Source: Pseudomonadota bacterium (GTDB lineage Bacteria > Pseudomonadota > Gammaproteobacteria > Burkholderiales > UBA9220). Taken from it: a stretch of 64,000 nt of DNA. Of the stretch, positions 5,553 to 45,901 are shown one piece after another; within the stretch, counting starts at the first letter, position 1; the number at the start of each line of letters is the position of its first letter. The stretch lies in contig JAJZVC010000008.1 of assembly GCA_021845865.1 (NCBI GenBank), forward strand, positions 1,137 to 65,136. The letters run 5' to 3'. The notes under the pieces were generated by a model. The model was given only the letters and a program-made list of their open reading frames with translations, had not been told where the DNA came from and searched no databases. Position numbers and translations under genes: made by a program.

Positions 5553-5596
5553 CGGCGGCGTGGTAGAATCGCGCCTTTCTTCCCTCCGAACCGCCC

Positions 5597-7498
5597 ATGC
5601 CCCTCGCCACCCTGGAAAACGCCTGCCTCGCCTTCGGCCACGTCGCCCTCCTGGACCACGCCGAACTGGTCATCGAGCCCGGCGAGCGGTTGGGCCTCAT
5701 CGGCCGCAACGGCACCGGCAAATCCAGCCTGCTGAAGATTCTCGCCGGCGCGGCCCATCTCGACGACGGCAAGGCCTGGCGCGGTCCCGACGTGCGCGTC
5801 GGCTACGTCCCCCAGGAACCGGCCTTCACCCCCGGCCAGACGGTATTCGACGCCGTGGCGGAGGGCACCGGCGAAGTGCGCCGCCTGCTGGTGGACTACC
5901 ACGGCGTCGCCCATGCCCTGGGGGAGACCGGCGCCGACACCGCCGCCTTGATGGAGCGCCTGCACCGCCTGCAGGAGGAACTGGAGGCCGCCGACGGCTG
6001 GAGCGTGAAAAACCGCGTGGATGTGGTCCTGACCAAGCTCGGCCTGCCCCCCGACACCGCCGTGGACGATCTTTCCGGCGGCTGGAAGAAGCGCGTCGCC
6101 CTGGCCCGCGCCTTGGCGGGAGAGCCGGACCTGCTGCTCCTGGACGAGCCCACCAACCACCTGGACTTTGCCGCCATCGAGTGGCTGGAAGACCTCCTGC
6201 GCGCCCATGCCGGCAGCGTGCTGTTCATCACCCACGACCGCCGTTTCCTCGACAACGTGGCCACCCGCATCGTCGAACTGGACCGGGGACGGCTGCTGTC
6301 CTATCCCGGCAGCTTCGCCGCCTACCGTCAGCGCAAGCAGGAGCAGCTGGCGGTGGAAGAAACCGTCAACGCCAAGTTCGACAAATTCCTCGCCCAGGAA
6401 GAGGTGTGGATCCGCAAGGGCATCGAAGCCCGCCGCACCCGCAACGAAGGCCGCGTCCGCCGCCTGGAGGCCCTGCGCCGGGAGCGGACTGCCCGCCGCG
6501 AGCGCCTGGGCGGCGTGAACCTGTCCCTGGACGAAGGGGAACGCTCCGGCAAGCTGGTGGCGGAACTGGTCAACGTGCGCAAGGCCTTTGGCGGCCGGAC
6601 CGTCATCCGCGACTTCTCCACCCGCATCATGCGCGGCGACCGCATCGGTCTCCTGGGCCCCAACGGCGCGGGGAAAAGCACTCTCCTCAAGCTCATCCTC
6701 GGCGAACTGGCGCCGGACGCTGGCGAGGTGCGCCTGGGCACCAAGCTGGCGGTGGCCTACTTCGACCAATTCCGCGAGCAGCTCGACCCTGAAGCCACCC
6801 TGGCCGACACCATCAATCCCGGCGCCGATTACGTCGAAATCGGCGGCGAGAAGAAGCATGTGGTGAGCTACCTGGGGGATTTCCTGTTCTCCCCCGCCCG
6901 GGCCCGCTCCCCGGTGAAATCCCTGTCCGGCGGCGAGCGCAACCGCCTGCTGCTGGCCCGTCTGCTGGCCCGGCCCGCCAACGTGCTGGTGCTGGACGAA
7001 CCCACCAACGACCTGGACATCGAAACCCTGGAAATGCTGGAGGAACTGCTGGAGAACTTCTCCGGCACCCTGTTCCTCGTCAGCCACGACCGGGAGTTCC
7101 TCGACAACGTCGTCACCCAGGTATTCGCCTTCGAGGGCGACGGGGTCATCCGCGAATACGCCGGGGGCTACGACGACTGGCTGCGGGCCCGCCCCAGACC
7201 GGAAGAGAAGACGGCCGAAAGGAAGGAACCGCCCTCCAAGCCCGCGCCCGCCAAATCCTCCGCCAAGACCAAGCTGAGCTACAAGGAGGGCAAGGAACTG
7301 GAAGCCCTCCCCGCCCGCATCGAAGCCCTGGAAAAAGAACAAAAGGACATCGGCGAGCAGCTTGCCGATGGCGAACTCTACCGCGCCGACCCGGAACGGG
7401 TGAAAACCCTCCAGGCCCGCTACGCCGTCCTCGACGAGGAACTCCTCGCCGCCCTCGCCCGCTGGGAAGAACTGGAAGCCAAGCAAGCAGTCTTATAG
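5597..7498 (+). CDS. uup: ABC-F family ATPase (Uup-like)
   Basis: It has two Walker A motifs (GRNGTGKS, GPNGAGKS) and two ABC signatures (LSGGWKKR, LSGGERNR). A Lys/Glu-rich coiled-coil C-terminus is present and there are no TM segments. Confidence 0.9.
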   Translation: MPLATLENACLAFGHVALLDHAELVIEPGERLGLIGRNGTGKSSLLKILAGAAHLDDGKAWRGPDVRVGYVPQEPAFTPGQTVFDAVAEGTGEVRRLLVDYHGVAHALGETGADTAALMERLHRLQEELEAADGWSVKNRVDVVLTKLGLPPDTAVDDLSGGWKKRVALARALAGEPDLLLLDEPTNHLDFAAIEWLEDLLRAHAGSVLFITHDRRFLDNVATRIVELDRGRLLSYPGSFAAYRQRKQEQLAVEETVNAKFDKFLAQEEVWIRKGIEARRTRNEGRVRRLEALRRERTARRERLGGVNLSLDEGERSGKLVAELVNVRKAFGGRTVIRDFSTRIMRGDRIGLLGPNGAGKSTLLKLILGELAPDAGEVRLGTKLAVAYFDQFREQLDPEATLADTINPGADYVEIGGEKKHVVSYLGDFLFSPARARSPVKSLSGGERNRLLLARLLARPANVLVLDEPTNDLDIETLEMLEELLENFSGTLFLVSHDREFLDNVVTQVFAFEGDGVIREYAGGYDDWLRARPRPEEKTAERKEPPSKPAPAKSSAKTKLSYKEGKELEALPARIEALEKEQKDIGEQLADGELYRADPERVKTLQARYAVLDEELLAALARWEELEAKQAVL

Positions 7499-31994: not shown

Positions 31995-32576
31995 ATGTCC
32001 GACACTCAAACCCTGGCCCTCCCCCGCAACCCGCCGGGAGATTTGGCCATCTGGTTTTTCATCTTCGCCGAGCTATTGGCCTTCGGCATCTTCTTCCTCG
32101 CCTATGCCTTCGCCCGGGCGAAAAACGTGGAGCTGTTCAATCAGTCCCAGCTCCTCCTCAACCGGGAATCGGGCATGGTCAACACCCTGGTGCTCATCAC
32201 CAGCAGCTACTTCGTGGTCCGCGCCGTCGCCGCCATCCGCGAGGGGTTCTCTCAAGTCTGCGCCCGCTGGCTGCTGGGCGCCATCGGCCTGGGCGGCGTG
32301 TTCGTCGCCGTCAAGCTGGCGGAATTCCACGCCAAGTTCGCCGCCGGCATCTCGCTCCACACCAACACCTTCTACATGTTCTATTTGTCCCTCACCATCT
32401 TCCACTTCATGCACGTGCTGATGGGCATGGTGATCCTCGGCTTCGTCGCGGTTAAGGCCCGACGGGGCGGCTACAGCGCGGACAGCCACACCGGCGTGGA
32501 AACCGGCGCCTCCTACTGGCACATGGTGGACCTGGTGTGGCTGATCCTGTTTCCCCTGGTCTACGTCATCCGGTGA
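31995..32576 (+). CDS. norE: cytochrome c oxidase subunit III-like protein NorE
   Basis: A 193-aa, 5-TM protein with LAIWFFIFAELLAFGIFF and WHMVDLVWLILFPLVY, the Cox3 family pattern. Confidence 0.85.
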   Translation: MSDTQTLALPRNPPGDLAIWFFIFAELLAFGIFFLAYAFARAKNVELFNQSQLLLNRESGMVNTLVLITSSYFVVRAVAAIREGFSQVCARWLLGAIGLGGVFVAVKLAEFHAKFAAGISLHTNTFYMFYLSLTIFHFMHVLMGMVILGFVAVKARRGGYSADSHTGVETGASYWHMVDLVWLILFPLVYVIR

Positions 32577-32581
32577 ACGCC

Positions 32582-32839
32582 ATGCGCCCCTGCACCCGAA
32601 TCTGGCTCCTCCTCATCGCCCTCTCCGGCGTCACCTACGGCATCGGCGAAGCCGGCCTGGGCGGCAAGGCGGTGGTAGCCACGCTGCTGGCCATTTCCCT
32701 GGTCAAAAGCCAGCTGGTGGCAGGCTTCTTCATGGGCCTGCGCCGCACCTCGTTCATGTGGCGGGCCATCATGGGGGGCTATCTGGTGGTGGTGTGCGGG
32801 ATGATCGGGGTGGCGTATTGGTTGGGCGCGGTCCGTTAA
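32582..32839 (+). CDS. norF: small membrane protein, NorF-like / prokaryotic Cox4 family
   Basis: An 85-aa product with three hydrophobic segments, directly after norE. The track ORF starts at 32537 and overlaps norE. Confidence 0.6.
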   Translation: MRPCTRIWLLLIALSGVTYGIGEAGLGGKAVVATLLAISLVKSQLVAGFFMGLRRTSFMWRAIMGGYLVVVCGMIGVAYWLGAVR

Positions 32840-32920
32840 ACAGTGCGTAGTTTTACTTACCGCCGGGAGACAGCATTCTTTCCCCCTTGACGGGGGAGGG
32901 AGAAGAACATCAGCGCGGGA

Positions 32921-34744
32921 TTAGCGCGTCAGCTGGGCGTAGAGCGCCGGCAGTTCCCGGGGCAGTTCCGCCGGGTTGCGGATCACCACGTAGCCGCCGA
33001 CGCCGAACAGGTGGGGCAGGTAATCCCCCGCCCGCTCGTCGATGGTGACGCAGAAGGGATGCAGCCCGGCCTTGCGGGCTTCCAGCAGCGCCATGCGGGT
33101 GTCCTCCAGGCCGTAGCGGCCCTCGTAGTGATCCAGGTCGTTGGGCTTGCCGTCGGTCAAAATCAGCAGCAGCCTTCTCCCCGCCGGCTGCTTGGCGAGG
33201 ATAGTGGAGGCGTGGCGCACCGCCGCCCCCATGCGGGTGTAGTAGCCGGGCTTGGCCGCCGCGATGCGGCCCCGCACCTCGGCGCCGTAGCGCTCGCCGA
33301 ACTCCTTGATGGCGTGGAAACGCACCTGGTGGCGCTTGAGGGAGGAAAAGCCGTAGAGGCCGAAGCGGTCGCCGGTGGCGGAGAGGGCTTCGGAGAACAG
33401 GAACAGGCTGTCGCGGATGACGTCGATCACCCGCTGGTGGTCGCTGATGTGGGCGTCGGTGGAGAGGGACAGGTCCGCCAGCAGCAGGCAGGCCAGGTCC
33501 CGGTCCTGGGCCCGGTGGTCCCGGTACAGGCCCCGCTCGGCGGCCAGGACGCCGGAGGCCCGCTCGGCCAGGAGGCGCACGCAGGCATCCAGGTCCGGCT
33601 CGGTGCCGTCGAACTGGCCCCGCATCCACACCCGCGCCGGCGCCAGGGCCTGGAACTGGCTGCGCAGGCGCTTGGCGGTTTTTTTCAGCTCCTGGGGCAG
33701 GTCGCAGGGCGTGGCCTGGCGCGCCACCATGGGCTGCACCCGGCAATGGCCGGGCTGCATCGCCTGCTTCTTGTAGTGCCACTCGGGGAGAAGAATGCCC
33801 TCTCCCAGGGGCAGGTCGTCCACGGCGGCGGAGGGCAGGTCCAGGTCGAAGCGCACGCTGGAGGCGGTGGTCTGGCCGTCCTGGGCCACGGCCATCACGT
33901 CCAGGTCGTCGGCGGCCCGTTCCGCCCCCTCGCCGTCGTCCTCCTCGGTGGCCCGGTTGACCTTCACGTATTCGGCCCAGGACAACACGCTCTCGGCGCG
34001 GAAGAACAGCATGAAGGGGTTCTTGTTTTCCGGCATCTCCGCCCGCTCGGCGCGGCGGCGCTTGCCGTCGCCCTTGCGGCGTGAACCTCCGCCCTCGCCG
34101 CCGCCTTTTGCCTGGCCCGCCGCTTGACCCAGCGCCACCGGTGGCTGGGGATGGAGCCACAGGGGCACCGGCCAGGGGGGCCGGGTGGCGGAAGGCAGCT
34201 CGGCCACCGAGCCCGGCTCCCGCAGGGCGGCGCGAATGGCCTCTTCCCGAGCCATCTCGTCGAACGGCAGGGCGCGCGGCGACGGCCTGAGGCCGATCGC
34301 CGGCTCCACCAGCCGACGGTAGCAGGCCGCCATGCCGGGGAAGCGCTCGAACACCGCCAGGGCAGCCTCCTGGCTGGCGCGGAACCAGTCGGGCTCTTCC
34401 GTTTCCGCCGCCGCCAGGGCGATGAGCCACAGGTAGAGGTCCCGGTTCAGGCTCCGCTCGGGGAACAGGTCGATGGCCTCGGGCAGGGCCAGCGCCTGCT
34501 CGTCCCGCCACGCCAGCTCGGCCCGCTCGCCGCTGCCGGCGATGCGGGCGAGGAGGCCGCGCCGGGCGCCGTGGCCCAGGGCGGCGGCGGGCTTCACGTC
34601 CAGGCCGCCATCGCCGCCGAGGGCGCGGAACAGGATGCCGGCGGTGCGCCCCATTTCCGCCAGCCGCACCGCCGCCCTGGGGTGGCGGCGGTCGGCGGCG
34701 CGGGTGATGAGGCGGTGCCACAGGACGCCGGCGTGCTCTTCCAT
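32921..34744 (-). CDS. norD: NorD (VWA-domain nitric oxide reductase activation protein)
   Basis: The 607-aa product has a C-terminal VWA with MIDAS-like LLADLSLSTDA. The N-terminus MEEHAGVLWHRLITRAA...DLYLWLIALAA is as in NorD. Confidence 0.9.
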   Translation of the reverse strand: MEEHAGVLWHRLITRAADRRHPRAAVRLAEMGRTAGILFRALGGDGGLDVKPAAALGHGARRGLLARIAGSGERAELAWRDEQALALPEAIDLFPERSLNRDLYLWLIALAAAETEEPDWFRASQEAALAVFERFPGMAACYRRLVEPAIGLRPSPRALPFDEMAREEAIRAALREPGSVAELPSATRPPWPVPLWLHPQPPVALGQAAGQAKGGGEGGGSRRKGDGKRRRAERAEMPENKNPFMLFFRAESVLSWAEYVKVNRATEEDDGEGAERAADDLDVMAVAQDGQTTASSVRFDLDLPSAAVDDLPLGEGILLPEWHYKKQAMQPGHCRVQPMVARQATPCDLPQELKKTAKRLRSQFQALAPARVWMRGQFDGTEPDLDACVRLLAERASGVLAAERGLYRDHRAQDRDLACLLLADLSLSTDAHISDHQRVIDVIRDSLFLFSEALSATGDRFGLYGFSSLKRHQVRFHAIKEFGERYGAEVRGRIAAAKPGYYTRMGAAVRHASTILAKQPAGRRLLLILTDGKPNDLDHYEGRYGLEDTRMALLEARKAGLHPFCVTIDERAGDYLPHLFGVGGYVVIRNPAELPRELPALYAQLTR

Positions 34745-34748
34745 GGCC

Positions 34749-35714
34749 TCAGTTCTCCTTGCCGCGATAGCAGTGGCCGGGAATGTCCACCCGGTGGCCG
34801 AAATCCCGCGCCGACTTGTCCAGGGCGCATTCGTTGCTCACCCACTTCAACAGGGTGCCCTCGGAATTGGCGATCTGCACCTGGGAACAGGCCTCGGCGC
34901 AGCGGTTGCACTGGGTGCAGGTGAACATGTGGCGCTTGATGGCGCGGGGCTTGAGGCGCATGGGGCAGACGTTGTCGCAGGCGGCGTCGCAGCTGGCGCA
35001 AGCCTCGGCCCGGCGGCGGTCGAAGCCGATCACCAGGGCCTTGCGGTTGCCCATCCAGGCCAGGCTCTGGAACAGGCCGATGGCGCAGCCGAAGCGGCAG
35101 AACAGGTGGCGGGCGAAGAGGAATTCGACGAAGAAGGCCACGGTGGCGGCGGTGATGAATACCGCCTGGTTGCGGGTCAAAGTGCCGCGCCACAGGTTGC
35201 CGTAGATTTCCGCCGGGGGCAGCAGGTAGGTGAGCAGCACCACCGCCCATACGAAGGCGAAGGCCAGGCTCATGCCCACCACCAGGGGCCAGTAGGCGGG
35301 GTTGGCCTTCGTCTCGCTGCCGTCCGGGTTGCGCTCCGGCAAGCGGTGCCGGTCCCAGACGCTCTGCTTGGCCGTGGCGCGGCGCAGCAGGTTGTTGAGG
35401 GTTTCCACCACCGAGAAGTGGGGGCACAGCCAGCCGCAGTAAAGGCGGCCGTATTTCCACGACACCCACACCCCGCCGCCGACGATCAGGGCGATGGGCA
35501 GCATGCCCCGCAGCAGCAGGTTCAGGGTCACCTGGGCGACGCCGGCCTTGCCGGCGACGAAATCGTCCACCCCCAGGGTCCAATCCATGCCGAAGAAGAT
35601 CAGGTGCTTGAGGTTGAGGTCGATGCGGAACAGGTCGAACACCGGCGCCAGGGCGAAGAGAATGAAGAAAGCGGCCTGGGTCAGCAGGCGGTAGCGCTGG
35701 ATGGAGCTAGCCAT
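34749..35714 (-). CDS. membrane polyferredoxin of the NapH/CcoG(FixG/RdxA) type
   Basis: The N-terminus YRLLTQAAFFILFALAPVFDLFRIDL..IFFG is CcoG-like. It has CGWLCP and CRFGC motifs plus two cluster motifs, CASCDAACDNVCP and CTQCNRCAEAC. It lies 4 nt from the norD start and overlaps the upstream ORF by 8 nt. Confidence 0.8.
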   Translation of the reverse strand: MASSIQRYRLLTQAAFFILFALAPVFDLFRIDLNLKHLIFFGMDWTLGVDDFVAGKAGVAQVTLNLLLRGMLPIALIVGGGVWVSWKYGRLYCGWLCPHFSVVETLNNLLRRATAKQSVWDRHRLPERNPDGSETKANPAYWPLVVGMSLAFAFVWAVVLLTYLLPPAEIYGNLWRGTLTRNQAVFITAATVAFFVEFLFARHLFCRFGCAIGLFQSLAWMGNRKALVIGFDRRRAEACASCDAACDNVCPMRLKPRAIKRHMFTCTQCNRCAEACSQVQIANSEGTLLKWVSNECALDKSARDFGHRVDIPGHCYRGKEN

Positions 35715-36102
35715 GGCCGGCCCTGCCGATGAAGGGGTAGATATAGGGCTTGCCCGCCAGGGCCTTGGACAAGCCGACCATCCCCAGCAGCACCAGGGTG
35801 GAATGGCAGGTGGTGAAATACAGAATCACCACCACCCAGGTGCCGGGAGCGCGCCAGCCGCCGAGCAGGAGAATGCCGACGTTGGCCGCCAGCAGCAGGC
35901 CTCCCGCCCACAGGCTGGCGAAGAAAGTCTGGCGCAGATGGCTGCGGGCCAGGGGCGGAGCGGCATGCCGCTGGCGCAGGTATAGCCAGGCCAGGCCGAG
36001 GAAAGCCAGCCCCGGCAGAAGCAGGAGGTTGACGAGGTAAAGGACTTCCGCGGCCACCGCCAGGGACTGGCCGGGAGGCGTCTCATCGGCCGAAAGTGGC
36101 AT
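35707..36102 (-). CDS. hypothetical 4-TM membrane protein
   Basis: The 131-aa product has four hydrophobic segments. It overlaps the norQ stop by 20 nt and the polyferredoxin start by 8 nt. I do not recognise the family. Confidence 0.6.
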   Translation of the reverse strand: MPLSADETPPGQSLAVAAEVLYLVNLLLLPGLAFLGLAWLYLRQRHAAPPLARSHLRQTFFASLWAGGLLLAANVGILLLGGWRAPGTWVVVILYFTTCHSTLVLLGMVGLSKALAGKPYIYPFIGRAGHG

Positions 36103-36865
36103 GGACGACCTCCATCAGCGCCGCCACCGTTTCCGGGTCGTCGGACAGGGGTTCCACCACGGCGGCGCGGCAGGCCTCCACCGGGTCGAGGCCGCTGCGG
36201 ATGAGGGTGGCGGCGTAAACCAGGAGACGGGTGCTGGCGGCCTCCTCCAGGTCGTGCTCCTTCAGCGCCCGGAAGGACTGGGCCAAGTTCACCAGGCGCC
36301 GCGCCAGCAGGGGGTCGATGCCCGTTTCCCCGGCGAGGATGGATTCCTCCCGGTCCGAGGACGGGAAATCGAAGCTCGCGCTGACGAAGCGCTGGCGGGT
36401 ACTGGGCTTCATGCCCTTGAGGAAATTCTGGTAGCCCGGGTTGTAGCTCACCACCAGCATGAATTCCGGCGGCGCCTGGAGGACCTCCCCCGTCCGCTCG
36501 ATGGGCAGGATGCGCCGGTCGTCGGAGAGGGGGTGCAGCACCACGGTGGTGTCCTTGCGCGCCTCCACCACCTCGTCCAGGTAGCAGATGCCCCCTTCCC
36601 GCACCGCCCGGGTCAAAGGGCCGTCGCTCCAGTAGGTGACGCCGTCGCCGATCAGGTGCCGCCCCACCAGGTCGGCGGCGGTGAGGTCATCGTGGCAGGC
36701 CACGGTGTATAGGGGCCGCCCCAGGCGCGCCGCCATGTGGGCGACGAAGCGGGTCTTGCCGCAGCCGGTGGGCCCCTTGATCAGCAGGGGCAGGCCGTTC
36801 TTCCAGGCGTGCTCGAACAGGGCGACTTCGTTGCCGTGGGGCTGGTAGAAGGGCAGATTGGACAT
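36083..36865 (-). CDS. norQ: NorQ/CbbQ-type MoxR AAA+ ATPase
   Basis: MSNLPFYQPHGNEVALFEHAWKNGLPLLIKGPTGCGKT contains the Walker A motif, and ICYLDEV is the Walker B. ATG at 36865; the track ORF starts at 36895. Confidence 0.92.
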   Translation of the reverse strand: MSNLPFYQPHGNEVALFEHAWKNGLPLLIKGPTGCGKTRFVAHMAARLGRPLYTVACHDDLTAADLVGRHLIGDGVTYWSDGPLTRAVREGGICYLDEVVEARKDTTVVLHPLSDDRRILPIERTGEVLQAPPEFMLVVSYNPGYQNFLKGMKPSTRQRFVSASFDFPSSDREESILAGETGIDPLLARRLVNLAQSFRALKEHDLEEAASTRLLVYAATLIRSGLDPVEACRAAVVEPLSDDPETVAALMEVVHATFGR

Positions 36866-36922
36866 GAACGCGACTCCGTCTTCCGATGAGACCAAGAATA
36901 AGGCGGCCTACAGGGAAGGGCT

Positions 36923-36936
36923 TTGACTTCCGTCAA
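36923..36936. promoter_or_regulatory. DNR/NnrR-like box TTGACTTCCGTCAA upstream of norQ
   Basis: A perfect TTGAC-N4-GTCAA palindrome. On the minus strand TATTCT (36895-36900) is at the class-II -10 position, 64 bp upstream of the norQ ATG. Confidence 0.65.
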
Positions 36937-37053
36937 GGCTTCGGGATTTTGCCCTCTCCGCGCCCCACTCCGGCGGCGGCGATTTGACCTGGATTAAGGC
37001 GCCGTTGCGCGGCGGCGGCTAACATGGCCGTATCGTTTCCCGTGAGGTGCGCC

Positions 37054-37665
37054 ATGCAGTTGCCCGAATTCTTCGACGCCGTCCCGCCCCTGGTGCTGCG
37101 GGACCCCCTCGCCGCCTTTCTCGGCGCGGCGGAGGACGGCCTGATCGAGTACCGCTACGCCGACGCCGTCAAACTGGCCGGCCACTCCTGCCCCACGGTG
37201 GCCGGGGCCTGGCTCATGACCCGCTGCGCCCTCGCCGCCCTCTACAGCGATGCCGTGCCGGAGCGCGGCGAAATAAAAGTAGAATTCCGCGACCCCCAGG
37301 ACAGCGGCGTCACAGGCGTCATCGCCAACGTGGCCGGCCTGCTCACCGGCGCCGCCGGCGACGGCGGCTTCAAGGGTCTGGGCGGCCGCTTCAACCGCCG
37401 CGGATTGATGGCCTTCGGCGTGCCCATGGAAGGGGAAATCCGCTTCACCCGCGTGGACACCGCCGCGGCCGTGGAAACGGCCTACCGTCCGCAGCTCGTT
37501 CCGCCCCAACCTGAAACGGGAATGCTGCTGCAGAAAATCCAGGCCGGCAGTGCCAGCGCCGAAGAGCGGCGGACCTTCGGCCGCCTGTGGCAGGAGCGGG
37601 TCAAGCACCTGCTTCTCGGCCAGGCCGGCACGCCGGAGTGGGTGACGGTGAGCCGCAAATCATGA
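37054..37665 (+). CDS. FmdE-like domain protein (tentative)
   Basis: KLAGHSCPTVAGAWLM resembles the GHxCPG core of the FmdE family. GAGG lies 7 nt before ATG 37054. A degenerate box TTGACCTGGATTAA (36984-36997) with TAACAT at 37020-37025 sits upstream. Confidence 0.5.
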   Translation: MQLPEFFDAVPPLVLRDPLAAFLGAAEDGLIEYRYADAVKLAGHSCPTVAGAWLMTRCALAALYSDAVPERGEIKVEFRDPQDSGVTGVIANVAGLLTGAAGDGGFKGLGGRFNRRGLMAFGVPMEGEIRFTRVDTAAAVETAYRPQLVPPQPETGMLLQKIQAGSASAEERRTFGRLWQERVKHLLLGQAGTPEWVTVSRKS

Positions 37666-38213
37666 GCGGCGAGGGCATCCGCCTCGGCCTGACGGAAGAA
37701 AGCGCCGCCGAGCACTGCCGCGACATCCGGCGGCGCGCCCCCGGCAGCGCCCACGCCCTGGCGGCCCTCACCGCCTTGCACGATTTCGTGGCGGAAGCCG
37801 CCGTGTCCGCGGACCGCTTCTCCCCCGCGCACCGCGCCGTCCTCGCCGTCATCCACCGCCACGCCGAGGAAACCCGCGCCGCCCTGCTGGCGGAAAGCGC
37901 CGAGGCGCTCGCCGCCGCGCTCCGGGGCCAGGACCGCCCGGCCCTGGCAAGGCTGCACCGGACCCTGTCCCGCAACGGTTTCTGGCAAGCCGCAACGGCA
38001 GCGGGAGAGGGCTTGGCAGCCGCCGAACTGGCCGCCGCCACGGACTGGGCGGAAGCATGGCTGAAGGAAGCGAAACGGCGGGGGGAAGCCGCCAGCGGCT
38101 ACCCCGACGCCCTGGACTTCGCCGGGGCGGGAATCCCGCCGGAGGAATACGCCGCCCTGCAGGATGCGGCCCACTGCCTGAGGGGGATTCTGGCAACTTC
38201 GGAAATGCTTTGA
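37662..38213 (+). CDS. hypothetical Ala-rich helical protein
   Basis: The ATG overlaps the upstream stop (ATGA). The 183-aa product has no recognisable motif. Confidence 0.5.
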   Translation: MSGEGIRLGLTEESAAEHCRDIRRRAPGSAHALAALTALHDFVAEAAVSADRFSPAHRAVLAVIHRHAEETRAALLAESAEALAAALRGQDRPALARLHRTLSRNGFWQAATAAGEGLAAAELAAATDWAEAWLKEAKRRGEAASGYPDALDFAGAGIPPEEYAALQDAAHCLRGILATSEML

Positions 38214-38233
38214 GGCTAACCGATGAGCGGCAA

Positions 38234-38253
38234 GGGAAAGCGTGGTCTGTCCC
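38234..38253 (-). repeat. repeat copy 1 (GGGACAGACCACGCTTTCCC on the minus strand)
   Basis: Matches the 21-mer consensus with one substitution and one missing G. It is preceded on the minus strand by the A-rich GAAAAATAA. Confidence 0.9.
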
Positions 38254-38299
38254 TTATTTTTCTCTTCGCTTCCCTGCTACAGGGAAGTAGGCCCTATTG

Positions 38300-38800
38300 T
38301 CAGGGAAGAAACATCATTCTCGTAAATGCGATGCTAAGCAGTAGCGCCGCAATAACCAGCAAGAAGGCGGCCCCCTTGAGAAACGAGTGTGCCCGTAAGA
38401 ATTTATCGGTTCTGATGGATATATTTGTTTCCACCTCGGATTGAGTGGACGCATCGTGAAGCAACAAAAGCTTGATGGCCTGCAAATGGTGGAACAAGGC
38501 ACCCGCCGCATAGAACCGTTGCAGAAGGGCTGCCGCAGCTGCCAGCGCAAAAGCGACCACGGACGCCGAGAATAGAGCCCGGACCGGCATGTCCTTCAAG
38601 CTCTGTTGCAATTGGGTCTCGGGAAAGTTGGCGAGCAGGAAGCCCACTACGGCTATGCCGCCTAAGGCGAGTTTCAGAAGCTCGCTGGAAAAAGCCTGCG
38701 AACGGTCGTGAAGCTCCAAGTCTGCCTTGTAGCGGACTTCTGGCACGTCAAGCGCTCCCAGTTGCTGAACGCGTATTTTGGGATTGATTGGTGTAGTCAT
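38300..38800 (-). CDS. hypothetical membrane protein (166 aa, about 3 TM)
   Basis: An ATG-initiated ORF in low-GC DNA, where long random ORFs are unlikely. Hydrophobic segments include LALGGIAVVGFLLANF, ALFSASVVAFALAAAAALL and AAFLLVIAALLLSIAF. There is no clear SD. Confidence 0.6.
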   Translation of the reverse strand: MTTPINPKIRVQQLGALDVPEVRYKADLELHDRSQAFSSELLKLALGGIAVVGFLLANFPETQLQQSLKDMPVRALFSASVVAFALAAAAALLQRFYAAGALFHHLQAIKLLLLHDASTQSEVETNISIRTDKFLRAHSFLKGAAFLLVIAALLLSIAFTRMMFLP

Positions 38801-38809
38801 AGAGAGTTA

Positions 38810-38830
38810 GGGGACAGACCACGGTTTCCC
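38810..38830 (+). repeat. repeat copy 2 (GGGGACAGACCACGGTTTCCC)
   Basis: Identical to copy 4 over 21 nt, and 9 nt upstream of the ORF 38300-38800 start. Confidence 0.95.
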
Positions 38831-38872
38831 TCTTGGGATAAGAGCACCAGTACAAGCAGAGGCGCTTCAAGC

Positions 38873-38895
38873 GGAAAAAACCGTGGTCTGTCCCC
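38873..38895 (-). repeat. repeat copy 3 (GGGGACAGACCACGGTTTTTTCC on the minus strand)
   Basis: Inverted relative to copy 2, 42 nt away. Its AAAAAAGGGGAC end is duplicated in tandem at 38905-38916. Confidence 0.9.
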
Positions 38896-38921
38896 TTTTT
38901 TCGTGTCCCCTTTTTTCTGGG

Positions 38922-39245
38922 TTAGACAAAAAAGCCCCTCATCATCATTGCGATGCCATAAAAAAGTGGCAAGAAAAGTATGGATGTTGGTATGCCAGCT
39001 AAGCAATATGCAGTTTTGATATGGCTAGCAGAAAGCGCTTTCTTGGCCAACCGAGAACCTAAGATTGCAGCGATTGGAGTTGTCCAGATGAAAATAACAA
39101 ACAACCATCGCGTCAGATGTGACGCCGGGCCGTTTCCTTCAAATGCCATCATTGTGGCAAATAGCATTGGTATCCATACAACCAAACCTACATAACTGAT
39201 GGTGCTGATTGTTCTCAGGCGGTCTGAATGTTTATCAATGTCCAC
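38922..39245 (-). CDS. hypothetical membrane protein (107 aa, about 3 TM)
   Basis: A GTG-initiated ORF in low-GC DNA. Hydrophobic segments are ISYVGLVVWIPMLFATMMAF, WLFVIFIWTTPIAAILG and CLAGIPTSILFLPLFYGIAMMM. Confidence 0.55.
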   Translation of the reverse strand: MDIDKHSDRLRTISTISYVGLVVWIPMLFATMMAFEGNGPASHLTRWLFVIFIWTTPIAAILGSRLAKKALSASHIKTAYCLAGIPTSILFLPLFYGIAMMMRGFFV

Positions 39246-39270
39246 GATATTTTGACGTTAAAGGAAAATA

Positions 39271-39291
39271 GGGGACAGACCACGGTTTCCC
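39271..39291 (+). repeat. repeat copy 4 (GGGGACAGACCACGGTTTCCC)
   Basis: Identical to copy 2, and 25 nt upstream of the ORF 38922-39245 start. Confidence 0.95.
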
Positions 39292-39479
39292 AACCGTCAT
39301 GCCAGTCTTAACATATCAGCAGGCACAATACCACCACATATCATTTACTATCAATAGCTTAGTATTTTTACCAGTCGGTAATAAATGCCAACAGCACGGA
39401 CAGCCCAAAGCCAGCCCCTGGCGCAAAGCGGAAGTTAAAGCAGGGTTCGTCCGACGAACGCTGGCGCCGCGACGGCGCG

Positions 39480-40674: not shown

Positions 40675-42045
40675 TCACTGCAGCATGAAGGTCTCGTATT
40701 CCAGCCGTTCCAGGCGGCGGTCGAGGAGCAGCATGCCGATCACCACCGTGGCGAGGAGGGAGAGGGCGAAACCGTAGCCGTAGAAAGTGGCCCCCAGCTT
40801 CAGGGTGGCAACGGTCAGGATGGCGTTGGCGGCGAGAAAGAACAGCACCAGGGCCAGGACGTTGAGGCGCTTGTCCAGGTAGTAGAAGACGTTGAGCAGC
40901 CCCAGCAGCACCACCTGCAGGGCCGCCGCCACCACGTCCACGTACAGCAGGGGCAGGTACAGCTCGGAAATCCCCAGCCAGCGCAGCAGGGATGGCCCCA
41001 GGACGAAGGTCAGCAGCACGGCGATGGCCTGGATTTTGACGATCTCCCCCAGGCCCTGGCGGATGGTGTGCACCATCTCATCGCGCATCTCCTCGATGTA
41101 TTCCAGGGTTCCCCCCTCCCGCACCGAGTCGTAGAACTTCTGGTAGTACTCGACGAAGTCGGTCTCCATGCGCACCAGGAACACCGCCATGCCAGGAATC
41201 ACCGACAGGTAGGCGAGGAAGATGGGGAAGTCGTAGATCAGGGAGGCCCGCAGGGGGCCGATGACGTTCTGCCCCGTGTCTGGATGAAACCAGAAAATGA
41301 TCTTGTCGCTCCACACCGCCAGGTTATAGGCGAAGCCGGAAACCATCAGGCTGGGATACATCACCCCTTTCTTCAGGAAATCGAAGGCCACGAAGCGGGA
41401 CGAGGGATAGTCCCGGTAAATCAGGGACAGCATGCCGGTGAGAAGGACGATATGCCCGATGATGAATCCCGCCAGCAGCCCTTCCAGGCCGAAGGGCCGC
41501 AGCACCAGGGCCGCCAGGACGCTGATGGCGTAGCCCGCGCCGTACATGACGACGATGGTCTTGTAGTATTTCATTCCCGACAGGGCCAGGGTGGTCACCC
41601 AGATGCAGCACATGGCGACGAAGCCGCCCAGCAGCAGCAGCTTGTAGGCGGCGCCAACGCCGCCGAAGAAGAGAAACAGCGCGGCCACCCCCAACCCTCC
41701 CGAGGCAGCCATGACCAGCAGCAACAGGCCGTTGAAGTTGGGCATGACGATTTCCTCGTTGCCCTCGTACAGCCGGTCGGCGATGAAGCGGGTGAAGGCG
41801 AGCTGGATCACCCCCGTCAGCACCAGGGAACCCACCATGATGTAGGTGACGGAAACCTGGAACTGGGTGACGAGGAAATCCGGCACCACCACCGACAGGC
41901 TCATGAAGCCGATGATCAAGACGCCGACGATGGACAGCACCCAGGAGCCGGAGCTGATCACCCCGGCATAGAGGTAGGCCTGCAGCAGGCCGCTGTAGGT
42001 GTCGGATTTGAGGAGTTTCCTTAGTTCAAAACCAATCCCCGCCAT
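40675..42045 (-). CDS. pelG: Pel polysaccharide membrane protein PelG
   Basis: Starts MAGIGFELRKLLKSDTYSGLLQAYLYAGVISSGSWVLSIVG and is polytopic. The track ORF extends to 42162. Confidence 0.88.
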   Translation of the reverse strand: MAGIGFELRKLLKSDTYSGLLQAYLYAGVISSGSWVLSIVGVLIIGFMSLSVVVPDFLVTQFQVSVTYIMVGSLVLTGVIQLAFTRFIADRLYEGNEEIVMPNFNGLLLLVMAASGGLGVAALFLFFGGVGAAYKLLLLGGFVAMCCIWVTTLALSGMKYYKTIVVMYGAGYAISVLAALVLRPFGLEGLLAGFIIGHIVLLTGMLSLIYRDYPSSRFVAFDFLKKGVMYPSLMVSGFAYNLAVWSDKIIFWFHPDTGQNVIGPLRASLIYDFPIFLAYLSVIPGMAVFLVRMETDFVEYYQKFYDSVREGGTLEYIEEMRDEMVHTIRQGLGEIVKIQAIAVLLTFVLGPSLLRWLGISELYLPLLYVDVVAAALQVVLLGLLNVFYYLDKRLNVLALVLFFLAANAILTVATLKLGATFYGYGFALSLLATVVIGMLLLDRRLERLEYETFMLQ

Positions 42046-42046
42046 C

Positions 42047-43561
42047 TCATTCCTTTTCCAGGCAGGCGCGGTAAATGCCGCGGTAGCTGTCGAACACCAG
42101 CTCCTCCGAATAGTAGCGCTCCACCCGCTCCATCCCGGCCCGCTGGGCGGCATGCCAGGCATTTTCGTCGGTCAGCAGCTCCAGGCAGGCATCGGCCAGG
42201 GCCCCGGGAGAGGCGATGCCGACGACGCGCCCCGACGGCCCCAGGGCCTCGTCCTCCCCCGGCAGGCCATGCACCAGCTGGCGGCAGGAACCCACGTCGG
42301 TGGTCACCACCGGCACCCCGGCGCCGTAGGCCTCCAGCACCACCAGGGGCAAGGCCTCGCTGATGGAGCTCAGCACCAGCAGGCCCGCCTGGGGCAGGAT
42401 ATCCTCCACCTTGCGGAAGCCGAGGAACCTCACCGACTCGGCCAGGCCCAGGCTCTGCACCAGTTCGCGGCACTCCCGGGCGTATTCCGGGTCTTCCTCC
42501 TCCGGCCCCACGATCCATCCCTGGGCCTCCGGCAGGCGGTTCACCACGGTGCGCATGGCGCGGATGAAGGTCTTCACGTCCTTGATCGGCACCACCCGGC
42601 CGATGAGGCACATCACCGGCGGCACCGCCTCGGCCCGCTGCCGGCGCAAGGGCACCAGCTTGCCTAGATTCACGCCGTTGGGGATGCAGCGGGTCCGCTC
42701 CGCCGGCGCCCCGTCCTGGAGCTGGCGCTGGCGGTTGGCCTCGTAGAGGGCGACGATGTGGTCGCAGGCGTCGTAGCACATCTTGCCCAGGACCTCGAAG
42801 AAGCGGATCCACAGCTGCTTCAGGTAGCCGATTTCCGTGGCGCTGCGCTGGAACAGGTTGCGGTTGTCCCGCACCCAGTCGCTCTGGAACAGGTCGATCT
42901 TGCGTTCCTTGGTGTAGATGCCGTGCTCCGACAGGACCAGGGGCTTGCCGGTGTACTGCTTGAGGAGAGCGCCGAGGAAGCCGGCATAGCCGGTGGACAC
43001 CGTGTGGTAGGCGCGGACCGGGAAAGGATGCTGCCCCGCCGCCGCCAGCAGCCACACCGGCGTGTGCATGATGCGCACGGTCCAGAAATAGTCGATGTAG
43101 GACGGGTCGGCGCAGTACTTGCCGTAGCGGTTGCGGATGAAATCCCAGGAGCGCTTGCCGTAAAGAAAGGTGCCGTGGGGCAGCTTGCCGCCCCCGTGGA
43201 GTTCCCGCGCCAGGTCGGCGAAAAGGCTGCTCCAAGGCGTGGACAGGGGAGTGCGGAAGGCCTCGTGGAGCTTATCCACCCGCTCGAACACTTCCGCGTC
43301 GCCGTCGCAGGCCTGGACCGGCGGGGCCTCGTGGGCAGAGAAAATGTAGTGGTGCTCCAGGTGGACCACGTTGTCCGGCAGGGGATATTTTTTCTCGCCG
43401 TAATCCTCCGGCCGGCTGCCGATGAAAATGAGGGCGAAGGTGTACTCGGGGAAGCCCCTGATCAGCTGGTGCACCCAGCTCGACACGCCGCCGGAGACGT
43501 AGGGATAGGTCCCCTCCAGCAGCAGCCCGATGTCGGCGCGGTCGGCCTTGCTGAAATTCAT
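42047..43561 (-). CDS. pelF: Pel glycosyltransferase PelF (GT4)
   Basis: Contains IGLLLEGTYPYVSGGVSSWVHQLI, and a C-terminal GT4 EX7E-type region (SSISEALPLVVLEAYGAGVPVVTTDVG). Confidence 0.9.
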   Translation of the reverse strand: MNFSKADRADIGLLLEGTYPYVSGGVSSWVHQLIRGFPEYTFALIFIGSRPEDYGEKKYPLPDNVVHLEHHYIFSAHEAPPVQACDGDAEVFERVDKLHEAFRTPLSTPWSSLFADLARELHGGGKLPHGTFLYGKRSWDFIRNRYGKYCADPSYIDYFWTVRIMHTPVWLLAAAGQHPFPVRAYHTVSTGYAGFLGALLKQYTGKPLVLSEHGIYTKERKIDLFQSDWVRDNRNLFQRSATEIGYLKQLWIRFFEVLGKMCYDACDHIVALYEANRQRQLQDGAPAERTRCIPNGVNLGKLVPLRRQRAEAVPPVMCLIGRVVPIKDVKTFIRAMRTVVNRLPEAQGWIVGPEEEDPEYARECRELVQSLGLAESVRFLGFRKVEDILPQAGLLVLSSISEALPLVVLEAYGAGVPVVTTDVGSCRQLVHGLPGEDEALGPSGRVVGIASPGALADACLELLTDENAWHAAQRAGMERVERYYSEELVFDSYRGIYRACLEKE

Positions 43562-44565
43562 GCCCTGGGCTCCCGGGAAGTCCAATAGCTCACCACCGGC
43601 TTGAGGCGGGGGGACAACTGCACTGCCGAAATCCCCTTCAGCAGCAGCGCCACCAGCTCGAAATCCCGCCGGCGGAAAGTGACCTCCGCCAGGTAGGGCA
43701 ACACCCGCGCCCGCGGCAGGCCTTTCTCGAAGCCTTGCATGAAGGCGTACTCGGCTTCCTGGAGATTGCCCATTTCCAGTTCCGCCCGCCCTCGCAGGTA
43801 CCAGATGCCCGGGTCGTCCGGCGCCAGCTTCTGGGCCTCCTCCACGTAGCGCCGGGCCTCGGCGATGAGGTGGCGTTTCACGTCCCCCTGGACCAGATGC
43901 TCATACACCAGCTCCCAGTGCAGTTCCGCCAGGTGGCGCAGGCTGTTGAGGCGCTCCTCCGGCTTCCTGGCCTGCTCCAGCTGCGCCGCCTCGGCGCGGA
44001 TTTTCTTGTAGATCGCCTTTTCCCGCCGGTCGATGATGCCGTAGGCAATCAGCCGGATATCGTCGGCGGTATCGTCCATGGACTGGCGCAGGGTGGGGTT
44101 GGCCGCCGACGGCGCCACCCCTTGCAGGGCCAGGAGCGCCTTCATCCGCCGCTCCACGGGAATCTCCCGGTTCGCCAGCAATGGCCGCAGGGCGCCGTGT
44201 CCGAAGGACATTTCCTGCCCGCCCCGGGCGGGAACGAACTCCGGCAGCTCCACCTTGGCGAACTCGCGCCCCTTGGCGAAGCGCGGCAGATAGGTGGCCG
44301 CCACCACGCTCAGCCACAGGGCCGCCAGGCCGGCCACGGGCATGAAGAAGGCGAAGCAGAACAGGAGCGCCAGGGAGAAGCGGCGCGGCTGCCGGTACTG
44401 GGGGGGCAGCAGGCCGTGGACGAAGAGGGTCAGCATGGCGCTGGCGCCGCCGTGGCAGAGGAGAAACAGCGACAAGGCCCCCGCCCCGGCCTGGTTGGGG
44501 TAAACCGCCAGCAGCGCGGAGGATTCCAGGGAGAGAGCGCCCAGGCCCAGCTTCCAGTTAAGCAT
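43558..44565 (-). CDS. pelE: PelE (membrane + TPR-like)
   Basis: N-terminal TM helices are followed by TPR-like repeats (YLRGRAELEMGNLQEAEYAF). It is in operon position between pelD and pelF with ATGA overlaps. Confidence 0.8.
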   Translation of the reverse strand: MLNWKLGLGALSLESSALLAVYPNQAGAGALSLFLLCHGGASAMLTLFVHGLLPPQYRQPRRFSLALLFCFAFFMPVAGLAALWLSVVAATYLPRFAKGREFAKVELPEFVPARGGQEMSFGHGALRPLLANREIPVERRMKALLALQGVAPSAANPTLRQSMDDTADDIRLIAYGIIDRREKAIYKKIRAEAAQLEQARKPEERLNSLRHLAELHWELVYEHLVQGDVKRHLIAEARRYVEEAQKLAPDDPGIWYLRGRAELEMGNLQEAEYAFMQGFEKGLPRARVLPYLAEVTFRRRDFELVALLLKGISAVQLSPRLKPVVSYWTSREPRA

Positions 44566-45901
44566 GGGTGACGATGTCCTCCATGGCCGCCAGCAGGGGC
44601 TTGGCCCCCAGTTCCGCCACGTGGACCCGGCCGCAGGCGTCCTCCAGGGAAACGCCGAAATGCTGCTTGAACAGGTGTTCGAGGCGCTGCAGATAGCCCT
44701 CCACCGCCACTTCGCCGCAAAGGGGCATCAGATTGACGTATTTCACCGTCTCGCCACGGCGCAGTTCCCAGGCCACGTCCAGGCCCCGCTTCATGCGCTT
44801 GAGCAGCATCACCATGTCCTCCCGGTCCTCATGGGGCGGGAAGGACAGGGACACCACGTGGGACTTCACCCCGTGGTCCCGGCCCAGGCGCCATAGGCGC
44901 ACCATTTCCTCGGCGAACTCCAGGGGGCAATCGGCATCATGATCCATGATGCCGCGCACCTCCTCCACGTCGCTGACGCTGTCGGCGTAATAGCCCAGCA
45001 TCACCGCCAGCAACTGCAGGGTGTCCTGGTTGAGGGCGAAAAAGGGCATCTGGTCCACCGCCAGCACCCCCAGCAGCCTTCCCTTGCTGCTGAGCACCGG
45101 CGCCACCGCCAGGAAGCGGCTTTCCGTGGCCGTGCTCAGCTCCATGGTCTGGACATGGGTCAGGGTCCGCTGTTCCAGGGCCTGGGCGACCATGGGATCG
45201 GTCCGGTCGAAGGCAGGCGGATCGCCGAGTTTCGCCACCTGGCTGAAGCTGCGGCCATCGTCGGCGGTGACGTACAGGGCCGCTCCCTCCAGCTGGCAAT
45301 ATTGGGCCAGCAGCACCAGCATATCCTCTCCCGCCGGCATGGCCTGTCCCCGGCGGTCCCCCACCGCCAGCTCCCGCAGGGAGACGAGGGTATCCCGCAG
45401 GGTGGCCGGGCGGGAAAGCAGGTCCTGCTCCAGCCGGTCGTGGGACAGGCGCAGCAGGTGGTGCAGCTTGGTCATGCGCGACATGCGCTCGTCGAGGAAA
45501 TGGTTGGCCTCGTTGAGGCGGCGCAGGCGCGTCTGCCACAGGTCGCTGTATTCGCCGCACACCATCACCGCCAGCATGCCGCCGAAGAAGTAGAGCTTGG
45601 GAAACTCCCCCGCCTGGGGCAGCCACCAGTAGTTCAGGAGCAGCCAGGCGGCAAGGAGCAGGAAGGCGGAAAAGATGCCCGGCATCATGCCGTAGCGCAG
45701 GGCCAGCAGCAGGGGCGCGAACCACAGCCAGGGGAACTCCGACTCGACGAAGAACGGCTGCTCGGGCTGGACGGCGTAGGCCAGGCCCAGGGCCAACGCC
45801 GTCAGGACGGCGGATTCGGTCCACACCCAGCGCGCGCCGGCGGAGAAGGGCAGCACCGCCCGGCGCGCCTGCTCCCTGAAGCTGCGGCGGCGTTCGGCCA
45901 T
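44558..45901 (-). CDS. pelD: PelD c-di-GMP receptor (TM + GAF + degenerate GGDEF)
   Basis: Starts MAERRRSF. It has four TM segments, a GAF-like middle, and a C-terminal domain lacking GGDEF but carrying KRMKRGLDVAW (RxxD). The track ORF extends to 46321. Confidence 0.85.
   Translation of the reverse strand: MAERRRSFREQARRAVLPFSAGARWVWTESAVLTALALGLAYAVQPEQPFFVESEFPWLWFAPLLLALRYGMMPGIFSAFLLLAAWLLLNYWWLPQAGEFPKLYFFGGMLAVMVCGEYSDLWQTRLRRLNEANHFLDERMSRMTKLHHLLRLSHDRLEQDLLSRPATLRDTLVSLRELAVGDRRGQAMPAGEDMLVLLAQYCQLEGAALYVTADDGRSFSQVAKLGDPPAFDRTDPMVAQALEQRTLTHVQTMELSTATESRFLAVAPVLSSKGRLLGVLAVDQMPFFALNQDTLQLLAVMLGYYADSVSDVEEVRGIMDHDADCPLEFAEEMVRLWRLGRDHGVKSHVVSLSFPPHEDREDMVMLLKRMKRGLDVAWELRRGETVKYVNLMPLCGEVAVEGYLQRLEHLFKQHFGVSLEDACGRVHVAELGAKPLLAAMEDIVTHA

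Follow-up and report, generated by a model that had tools for sequence, protein, structure and literature searches.

The systems closest to the repeats analyzed here are those formed by repetitive extragenic palindromic (REP) sequences and REP-associated tyrosine transposases (RAYTs), as exemplified by the REP doublets forming hairpins (REPINs) of groups GI to GIII in Pseudomonas fluorescens SBW25 and by the REPs and bacterial interspersed mosaic elements (BIMEs) of Escherichia coli with their transposase TnpA-REP (YafM). TnpA-REP and the IS200/IS605 transposases recognize hairpins in single-stranded DNA and cut and join it through an HUH/tyrosine site. REPs are also known targets of, and joints for, DNA rearrangements, and classical REPIN populations are lineage specific and vertically inherited. 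Here, we analyzed a short repeat that occurs four times within a low-GC islet of a 64,000-nt stretch of DNA from a Pseudomonadota bacterium (GTDB order Burkholderiales, UBA9220; GenBank assembly GCA_021845865.1, contig JAJZVC010000008.1, positions 1,137 to 65,136), referred to here as the window.

According to published descriptions, REPINs are inverted doublets of REPs, with singlets being decaying remnants (PMC3116915); REPs typically carry a conserved GTAG or CGTC tetranucleotide head (PMC3733652); and a RAYT gene with flanking REPs is the signature arrangement of such systems (PMC5581495; PMC3116915). Group 1 RAYTs are widespread and plasmid-borne, show signs of horizontal transfer, and have a flanking 16-mer that is only modestly repeated, about 12 times per replicon (PMC5581495). 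We propose, with a probability of roughly 0.75, that the 21-mer repeated in the window is the arm of a REP/REPIN-type element and the cognate repeat of a widespread RAYT-like Y1/HUH (IS200-like) transposase, and that the window carries one doublet and two singlets of this element, with the two small open reading frames (ORFs) of the islet lying outside it.

A pattern search of both strands of the window with GGGGACAGACCACGGTTTCCC, allowing up to 3 mismatches, returned exactly four copies (Table 1), compared to a mean chance expectation of 0.01; four matches were reached in 0 of 100 shuffled sequences. Together with the GC profile (0.42 to 0.60 in the islet and 0.65 to 0.77 in its flanks) and the ORF list, which places both ORFs on the minus strand, this search confirmed what an earlier inspection of the letters alone (the sequence-only reading) had described, namely, that four copies alternate in orientation within a low-GC islet that also holds two ORFs, a recurrence not attributable to chance. 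The coordinates given there were right for the plus-strand copies and off by 1 to 2 nt for the inverted ones, and the A-rich outer tract that it had ascribed to all copies is clear in three of the four, the copy at 38810 carrying AGAGAGTTA instead. Over 23 nt (38808-38830 and 39269-39291), the two plus-strand copies do not differ.

The two central copies contain the arms (38809-38827 and 38878-38896, 19/19 complementary) of a perfect 19-bp inverted repeat, 50 nt apart. The predicted fold of this doublet has an energy of -29.2 kcal/mol (z = -6.2), and none of 200 shuffled sequences was as stable. The outer singlets have no predicted fold of their own (z = -0.7 to -1.0 for the left one), and the inner faces of both point outward from the islet. 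The left singlet is the copy with the most changes and is a decayed remnant, which fits the published finding that singlets decay (PMC3116915). No recurrence of the doublet spacer or of the noncoding parts of the islet was seen elsewhere in the fetched data, and an Rfam search of the region returned nothing near threshold.

Table 1. Features of the repeat islet, in window coordinates
Feature	Position	Strand	Description
Repeat copy	38234-38254	-	2 mismatches to GGGGACAGACCACGGTTTCCC
Repeat copy	38810-38830	+	0 mismatches to GGGGACAGACCACGGTTTCCC
Repeat copy	38875-38895	-	3 mismatches to GGGGACAGACCACGGTTTCCC, all at the inner CCC end
Repeat copy	39271-39291	+	0 mismatches to GGGGACAGACCACGGTTTCCC
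Intact REPIN-like doublet	38801-38902		Plus arm 38809-38827, 50-nt unique spacer, minus arm 38878-38896, outer tags
Left REP singlet	38234-38263	-	Core 38237-38253, 1 core mismatch (AAAGCG variant); T-rich outer tag 38254-38263
Right REP singlet	39262-39291	+	Perfect core; outer tag GGAAAATAG
T-tract with partial duplicate of the repeat outer end	38893-38920	+	GTCCCCTTTTTT twice; length polymorphic among strains
ORF1	38300-38800	-	166 aa; conserved, unannotated helical membrane protein
ORF2	38922-39245	-	107 aa, GTG start; small membrane protein of a small family
Young islet block	38220-39347		About 1.13 kb, low GC; nearly invariant among strains with diverged flanks
AT-rich noncoding leader with promoter-like sites	39292-39400	-	Putative leader of the ORF2-ORF1 unit

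The repeat is not unique to this locus. Scanning one genome per species (596 Gb) with GGGACAGACCACGSTTT, the sequence common to all four copies, we found the 17-nt core GGGACAGACCACGGTTT at at least 120 loci of other genomes. The family statistics given here rest on 120 listed loci (the true number being at least that), which were gathered by an exact core match and hold 264 copies, seen in 8-kb pieces. The hosts among these matches are mostly Gammaproteobacteria in the GTDB sense (Burkholderiales included). They comprise Gallionella, Sideroxydans, Accumulibacter, Rhodocyclaceae, and Azonexus hydrophilus DSM 23864, as well as Thiocapsa, Chromatiaceae, tubeworm symbionts, several Pseudomonas isolates, a Halieaceae isolate, and methanotrophs. 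Tagged copies or doublets were also present in Acidobacteriota, Desulfobacterota, and other metagenome-assembled genomes. The repeat sequence is absent from the searchable literature: a search with its 14- and 15-mers retrieved no paper, and its 12-mers matched only unrelated eukaryotic primer lists. Its core stays the same throughout many genera and some phyla.

The flanks of the core, which were not constrained by the search, are conserved as well, 80 to 83% of the copies having A at positions -4/-5 and 84% having G at -1. The unit of the family measures about 25 to 27 nt and consists of an outer tag, AAAA-Y-M-G, followed by the core GGGACAGACCACGGTTT and a pyrimidine. The outer tag complements the inner GGTTT(T) end, forming a mean of 5.2 of 7 possible pairs compared to about 3.2 in shifted controls, and with at least 6 of 7 pairs in 41% of copies compared to 3 to 7% in the controls. 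A single unit is therefore an imperfect palindrome. The window copies are individually weak palindromes, with 3 to 5 of the 7 tag-end pairs. Extra, partial copies of the outer end (GGGAC) are about 6-fold enriched family-wide (20/184, or 11%, compared to 1.9% by chance), and the duplicated GTCCCCTTTTTT of the window belongs among them.

This distribution bears on the possibility that the repeat arose locally as a regulatory element, a shared operator or a terminator, and has no mobile origin. Such an element would be in keeping with the plus-strand copies lying 9 and 25 nt upstream of the start codons of ORF1 and ORF2, respectively, and with the T-run that follows the doublet on the plus strand. 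However, the same core and tag are found beside unrelated genes in over 100 genomes, which span many genera and several phyla, and this spread excludes the locus-specific shared operator offered as an alternative by the sequence-only reading. Moreover, relatives of the two ORFs elsewhere lack the repeat, and the hairpin carries no U-tract on the transcribed minus strand, where a terminator scan made no call. We consider a purely regulatory origin very improbable, while a secondary regulatory effect of the repeat on the ORF2-ORF1 transcript is possible.

Some further observations were made on the surroundings of the repeat in other genomes. Small toxin-antitoxin-type genes (BrnT-, YoeB-, HicB-, and XRE-like, called by eye) recur near it at several of the loci L001 to L120, and an ABC-F ATPase is encoded nearby at 11 of the listed loci. 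No consistent direct duplication around doublets was apparent in the contexts that we looked over informally. Among 2.9 million viral contigs, 3 carry the core; one of these, an IMG/VR contig, holds four copies within 840 nt (L161:6160-6997).

When all ORFs of the 120 listed loci were clustered into families, the most recurrent neighbor of the repeat was a protein of about 235 aa, encoded at 15 of them. It matches the Pfam model Y1_Tnp (PF01797; E = 3.5e-14), and its best NCBIfam model is NF047646, REP_Tyr_transpos ("REP-associated tyrosine transposase"); the NCBIfam IS200 model NF033573 gave 20.9 bits against a cut-off of 55. An HUH motif (NHVHLL) and a tyrosine region (YRYIELNP) are invariant in the family, which has a conserved C-terminal extension, and the family profile matches ISDra2 TnpA (E = 3e-4) and, at an E value of 5e-3 only, E. 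coli TnpA-REP (4ER8). At about 10 of the listed loci the transposase gene is bracketed by the repeat, with a plus copy 28 to 175 nt upstream and a minus copy just beyond the stop codon. Both ends of these units consist of the same repeat in opposite orientations, with GGTTT pointing inward and the A-rich tag outward. The plasmid homologues of the transposase that we found share at most 53% identity with it. The Halieaceae isolate WMMBA4 has two 99%-identical RAYT-like genes 4 kb apart (L077:1416-2105 and 5398-6087), both with the same flanking repeats, a pair that reflects either segmental duplication or IS-like multiplication.

The identity of the linked enzyme also speaks to a different origin, in which the repeats would be sites of a tyrosine recombinase, either Xer/dif-like module sites, to which the locus had been likened from its layout, or attC sites in a cluster devoid of an integrase. 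The alternating orientation around single small genes and the hairpin-forming pairs between genes would be expected of such sites, and a XerC-like recombinase is encoded at 4 of the 120 listed loci. However, on inspection the unit does not resemble dif and has no 11-6-11 dif-like dyad, the outer positions in which RYYYAAC/GTTRRRY boxes are required do not hold any, and the stems are perfect, lacking the extrahelical bases needed by attC. By its scores the recombinase of the 4 loci is a XerC (405 bits) rather than an integron integrase (125 bits, where the cut-off is 265), none of the 120 listed loci encodes an integron integrase, and the consistently linked enzyme is the Y1/HUH transposase. 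Recombinase sites of this kind are thus, in our view, an extremely remote explanation. The locus resembles pdif modules and integron cassettes in that sites of the inverted-repeat or hairpin type separate small single genes and that a recombinase is lacking nearby; it differs from them in site architecture, in the linked HUH enzyme, and in that its genes do not travel with the sites.

The family further indicates which interval is the element. Among the listed loci, neighboring copies in convergent orientation (with GGTTT ends facing each other) have a bimodal spacing: 56 of 70 gaps are shorter than 120 nt and represent hairpin doublets, whereas about 12 measure 0.7 to 1.5 kb, and most of these enclose the transposase gene. 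Divergent pairs, on the other hand, are never close and have no preferred spacing. The element is the convergent pair, and both ORFs of the window occupy divergent intervals, between A-rich tag faces; 38809-38896 is therefore a single intact doublet, whose geometry fits the short-gap mode of the family, and the outer copies are singlets. The proposal that each ORF forms a repeat-ORF-repeat module accordingly has the boundaries reversed. The alternative wording of the sequence-only reading, units like miniature inverted-repeat transposable elements (MITEs) carrying passenger genes, was close in spirit, REPINs being nonautonomous miniature elements, except that the ORFs lie outside the elements and are not passengers.

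Gene content points in the same direction. In 23 divergent intervals of 150 to 3,300 nt from other genomes we found a mixture of unrelated genes, housekeeping-type as well as accessory (PhyH, lyxose isomerase, a MutL C terminus, MBOAT, LysE, MarR, an ABC ATPase) along with many unannotated ORFs. The layout of the islet is an ordinary intergenic placement rather than one of the cassette type, and what appeared to be an exotic cassette becomes recognizable as a young islet of two genes that contains a REP/REPIN doublet along with two half-copies that are dead. As a separate observation, the GC content of some between-element intervals elsewhere is 0.05 to 0.14 below that of their locus.

The parallels to REPIN-RAYT systems are a short, imperfectly palindromic extragenic repeat, most copies of which form inverted doublets with long hairpins; a Y1/HUH transposase gene between the same repeats (in other genomes, not in the window); singlets that are more decayed than doublets; and the occurrence of clusters. 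The wide spread of the core contrasts with the view of REPINs as lineage bound and vertically inherited and fits the poorly characterized, horizontally moving RAYT groups. In particular, a very wide distribution, apparent horizontal transfer, and low copy density are shared with the Group 1 RAYTs as described by Bertels et al. (2017). The Y1/HUH transposase, hairpin-forming ends, and nonautonomous hairpin derivatives are features in common with IS200/IS605 elements and palindrome-associated transposable elements (PATEs), but the two subterminal hairpins of IS200/IS605 elements differ from each other and lie on one strand, whereas the ends here are inverted copies of a single repeat. MITEs have terminal inverted repeats and target-site duplications and derive from DDE transposons; the doublets are miniature and nonautonomous, but the linked enzyme is of the HUH and not the DDE type.

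The two ORFs proved to belong to protein families of their own and are not the orphans that they had been taken for. ORF1 has 61 homologues of about 165 aa with 35 to 99% identity, in which 13 columns are invariant, including E40, G48, G53, R95, H105, and R130. Its AlphaFold model is confident (pLDDT of 88) and consists of long helices; about three hydrophobic segments are found in ORF1 and about three in ORF2. Neither ORF matched Pfam, NCBIfam, or PADLOC, and for ORF1 a PHROGs search gave one nonsignificant match only. For ORF1, a PDB sequence profile search and Foldseek against the PDB both gave only generic nonsignificant matches. ORF1 defines a conserved, unannotated membrane protein family of about 165 aa. 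ORF2 has 21 distant full-length relatives. ORF1 homologues are sometimes found within patches of lower GC.

Elsewhere, relatives of ORF1 and ORF2 lie in unrelated contexts, nucleotide homology ends at the ORF borders, and no repeat copy (with up to 4 mismatches) was detected near them at the six ORF1-relative loci and the one ORF2-relative locus searched. An ORF2 relative with 84% nucleotide identity (L130) has unrelated surroundings that lack the repeat. The histories of the repeat and of the genes are therefore separate. The idea that the repeat travels with ORF1 or ORF2 was ruled out by the repeat-less relatives at these seven loci.

The islet as a whole is young. Seven contigs from other samples, 98 to 100% identical to the window overall, share the four-copy arrangement. 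Within the islet block they showed 1 substitution in 1,128 nt and a single 8-nt indel in the T-tract (CCTTTTTT, present in L121, L123, L162, and L163), compared to a divergence of 1.9 to 2.0% outside the block (P = 8e-8 for L162 and 7e-9 for L121). The block is thus young relative to its surroundings and is shared between diverged backgrounds. Directly abutting it are patches that are hyperdiverged (21 to 26%) in L162 and L123, at 38187-38219 (7/33) and 39348-39417 (18/70). By these patches the window groups with L121, L164, and L165, as opposed to L162 and L123, and the DNA further out differs by 1 to 4%. This mosaic is most simply explained by recombination among related strains, with end points that differ, although precise insertion may also account for it. 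In either case, the block is a young, low-GC segment that was recently acquired or exchanged horizontally. It was absent from both the plasmid and the phage collections.

More distant relatives showed that the spot varies among strains. In L136, a relative with 87% nucleotide identity, the same variant of the left singlet is found at the same offset after the 208-aa gene. Beyond it, ORF1, ORF2, and the phosphodiesterase gene are missing between the left singlet and pelG, and their place is taken (L136:990-1515) by a gene for an MntA-like nucleotidyltransferase (a match of 49.8 bits, short of the cut-off) and its probable HEPN partner. A relative of the phosphodiesterase with 80% identity has neither the islet nor the repeat downstream. 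Taken together, these relatives indicate that the spot is strain variable and that the left singlet predates the present cargo. The syntenic comparison suggested by the sequence-only reading revealed a variable spot without yielding a clean empty site, as phosphodiesterase relatives at 80 to 84% lose synteny at the junction. The locus can be regarded as a small natural experiment in strain-level gene turnover beside a REP edge.

Several of these features could be taken to mean that the repeats delimit mobilizable modules, with each ORF or the whole 1.06- to 1.13-kb block as cargo moved by the RAYT-like or another enzyme. The block is bounded by outward-facing half-elements and nearly invariant where the adjacent DNA is 21 to 26% diverged, the homology to L136 stops precisely where the left singlet has its outer edge, past which the cargo is different, and some between-element intervals elsewhere are lower in GC than their surroundings. 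Against such modules, divergent intervals have no preferred size and enclose housekeeping-type as well as accessory genes, and ORF1 and ORF2 relatives with 78 to 84% nucleotide identity have no repeats, their homology ending at the ORF borders. The right edge of the invariant block, moreover, lies 56 nt past the right singlet, the transposase's own unit has the opposite topology, and ordinary homologous recombination with different end points can also yield the mosaic. We regard cargo modules as unlikely and favor a doublet and two singlets placed between genes.

There are, nevertheless, observations that do not sit easily with a REP/REPIN-type element. No gene or remnant of the family of the ~235-aa Y1 transposase is present in the 64-kb window, in agreement with the sequence-only reading, which had considered a mobile-element origin with the cognate enzyme absent from the window. 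All four copies found in 64 kb lie at one spot, within a 1.1-kb stretch, an apparent density far below that of classical REP populations. The ~235-aa protein scored 65.9 bits with the RAYT model of NCBIfam, below its cut-off of 80, and neither a GTAG nor a CGTC tag was evident in the repeat, the outer tag consensus being AAAA-Y-M-G. The identity of the core across many genera and some other phyla, also unlike the situation in REPIN-RAYT systems, is in part a selection effect of collecting loci by exact match. By our own calculation, about 140 chance matches to the core are expected in 596 Gb, and some untagged singletons may thus be noise; the family signal, however, is independent of isolated untagged singletons. 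Finally, the homology of L136 ends at the outer tag of the singlet (window position 38259), exactly at the REP edge, and this break, like the outward-facing singlets, is not predicted by passive intergenic placement alone.

In a bolder version, REP arms would be more than selfish hairpins and would also act as joints for the exchange of small accessory genes at hot spots, brought about by the RAYT-like enzyme or by the breaks that it introduces. It was prompted by a block that sits between outward-facing half-elements and is unchanged in two diverged alleles, and by the toxin-antitoxin pair of the relative, which is joined at the same repeat edge. We consider this version improbable. If true, it would describe an HUH-transposase analogue of integron and pdif cassette exchange across many bacterial lineages.

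By analogy with TnpA-REP and IS200/IS605, the RAYT-like transposase would bind the hairpin in single-stranded DNA and would cut and rejoin it through its HUH/tyrosine site. By the same analogy, the doublet would be mobilizable in trans and the singlets would be inert. REP edges may in addition promote local rearrangements, possibly including the junction at the edge of the left singlet. The ~235-aa RAYT-like protein and the 25- to 27-nt hairpin constitute a defined protein-DNA pair for biochemistry.

Read on the minus strand, the islet has the order promoter-like leader, singlet, ORF2, doublet, ORF1, singlet. The leader contains two sigma-70-like consensus matches on this strand (39391-39364 and 39354-39325), and its part from 39292 to 39347 falls inside the invariant block. 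Judged from these signals, the block has the appearance of a transcription unit in its own right. Within the transcript of ORF2 and ORF1, the doublet's 19-bp hairpin could serve as an mRNA stabilizer or a processing barrier; it would not be a terminator, because the transcript has no U-tract there.

The islet is located between the 208-aa gene and the pel/phosphodiesterase genes. Based on the gene calls of L121, window regions 32200-37000 and 40675-44800 flank the islet. One neighbor is a pel exopolysaccharide operon (PelD to PelG and a type I phosphodiesterase), and the other is a cluster with genes for a CbbQ/NorQ-type AAA protein, a weak MamF/MmsF-like match, Fer4_5 and VWA proteins, and cytochrome oxidase subunits. 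The name FmdE-like, which had been given to the plus-strand genes at 37024-37665 and 37587-38213, is not supported by Pfam or NCBIfam, neither of which matched them at E ≤ 0.01. In the ORF list these two ORFs overlap by 79 nt, but the gene calls of L121 give proteins of 203 and 183 aa with a 4-nt overlap.

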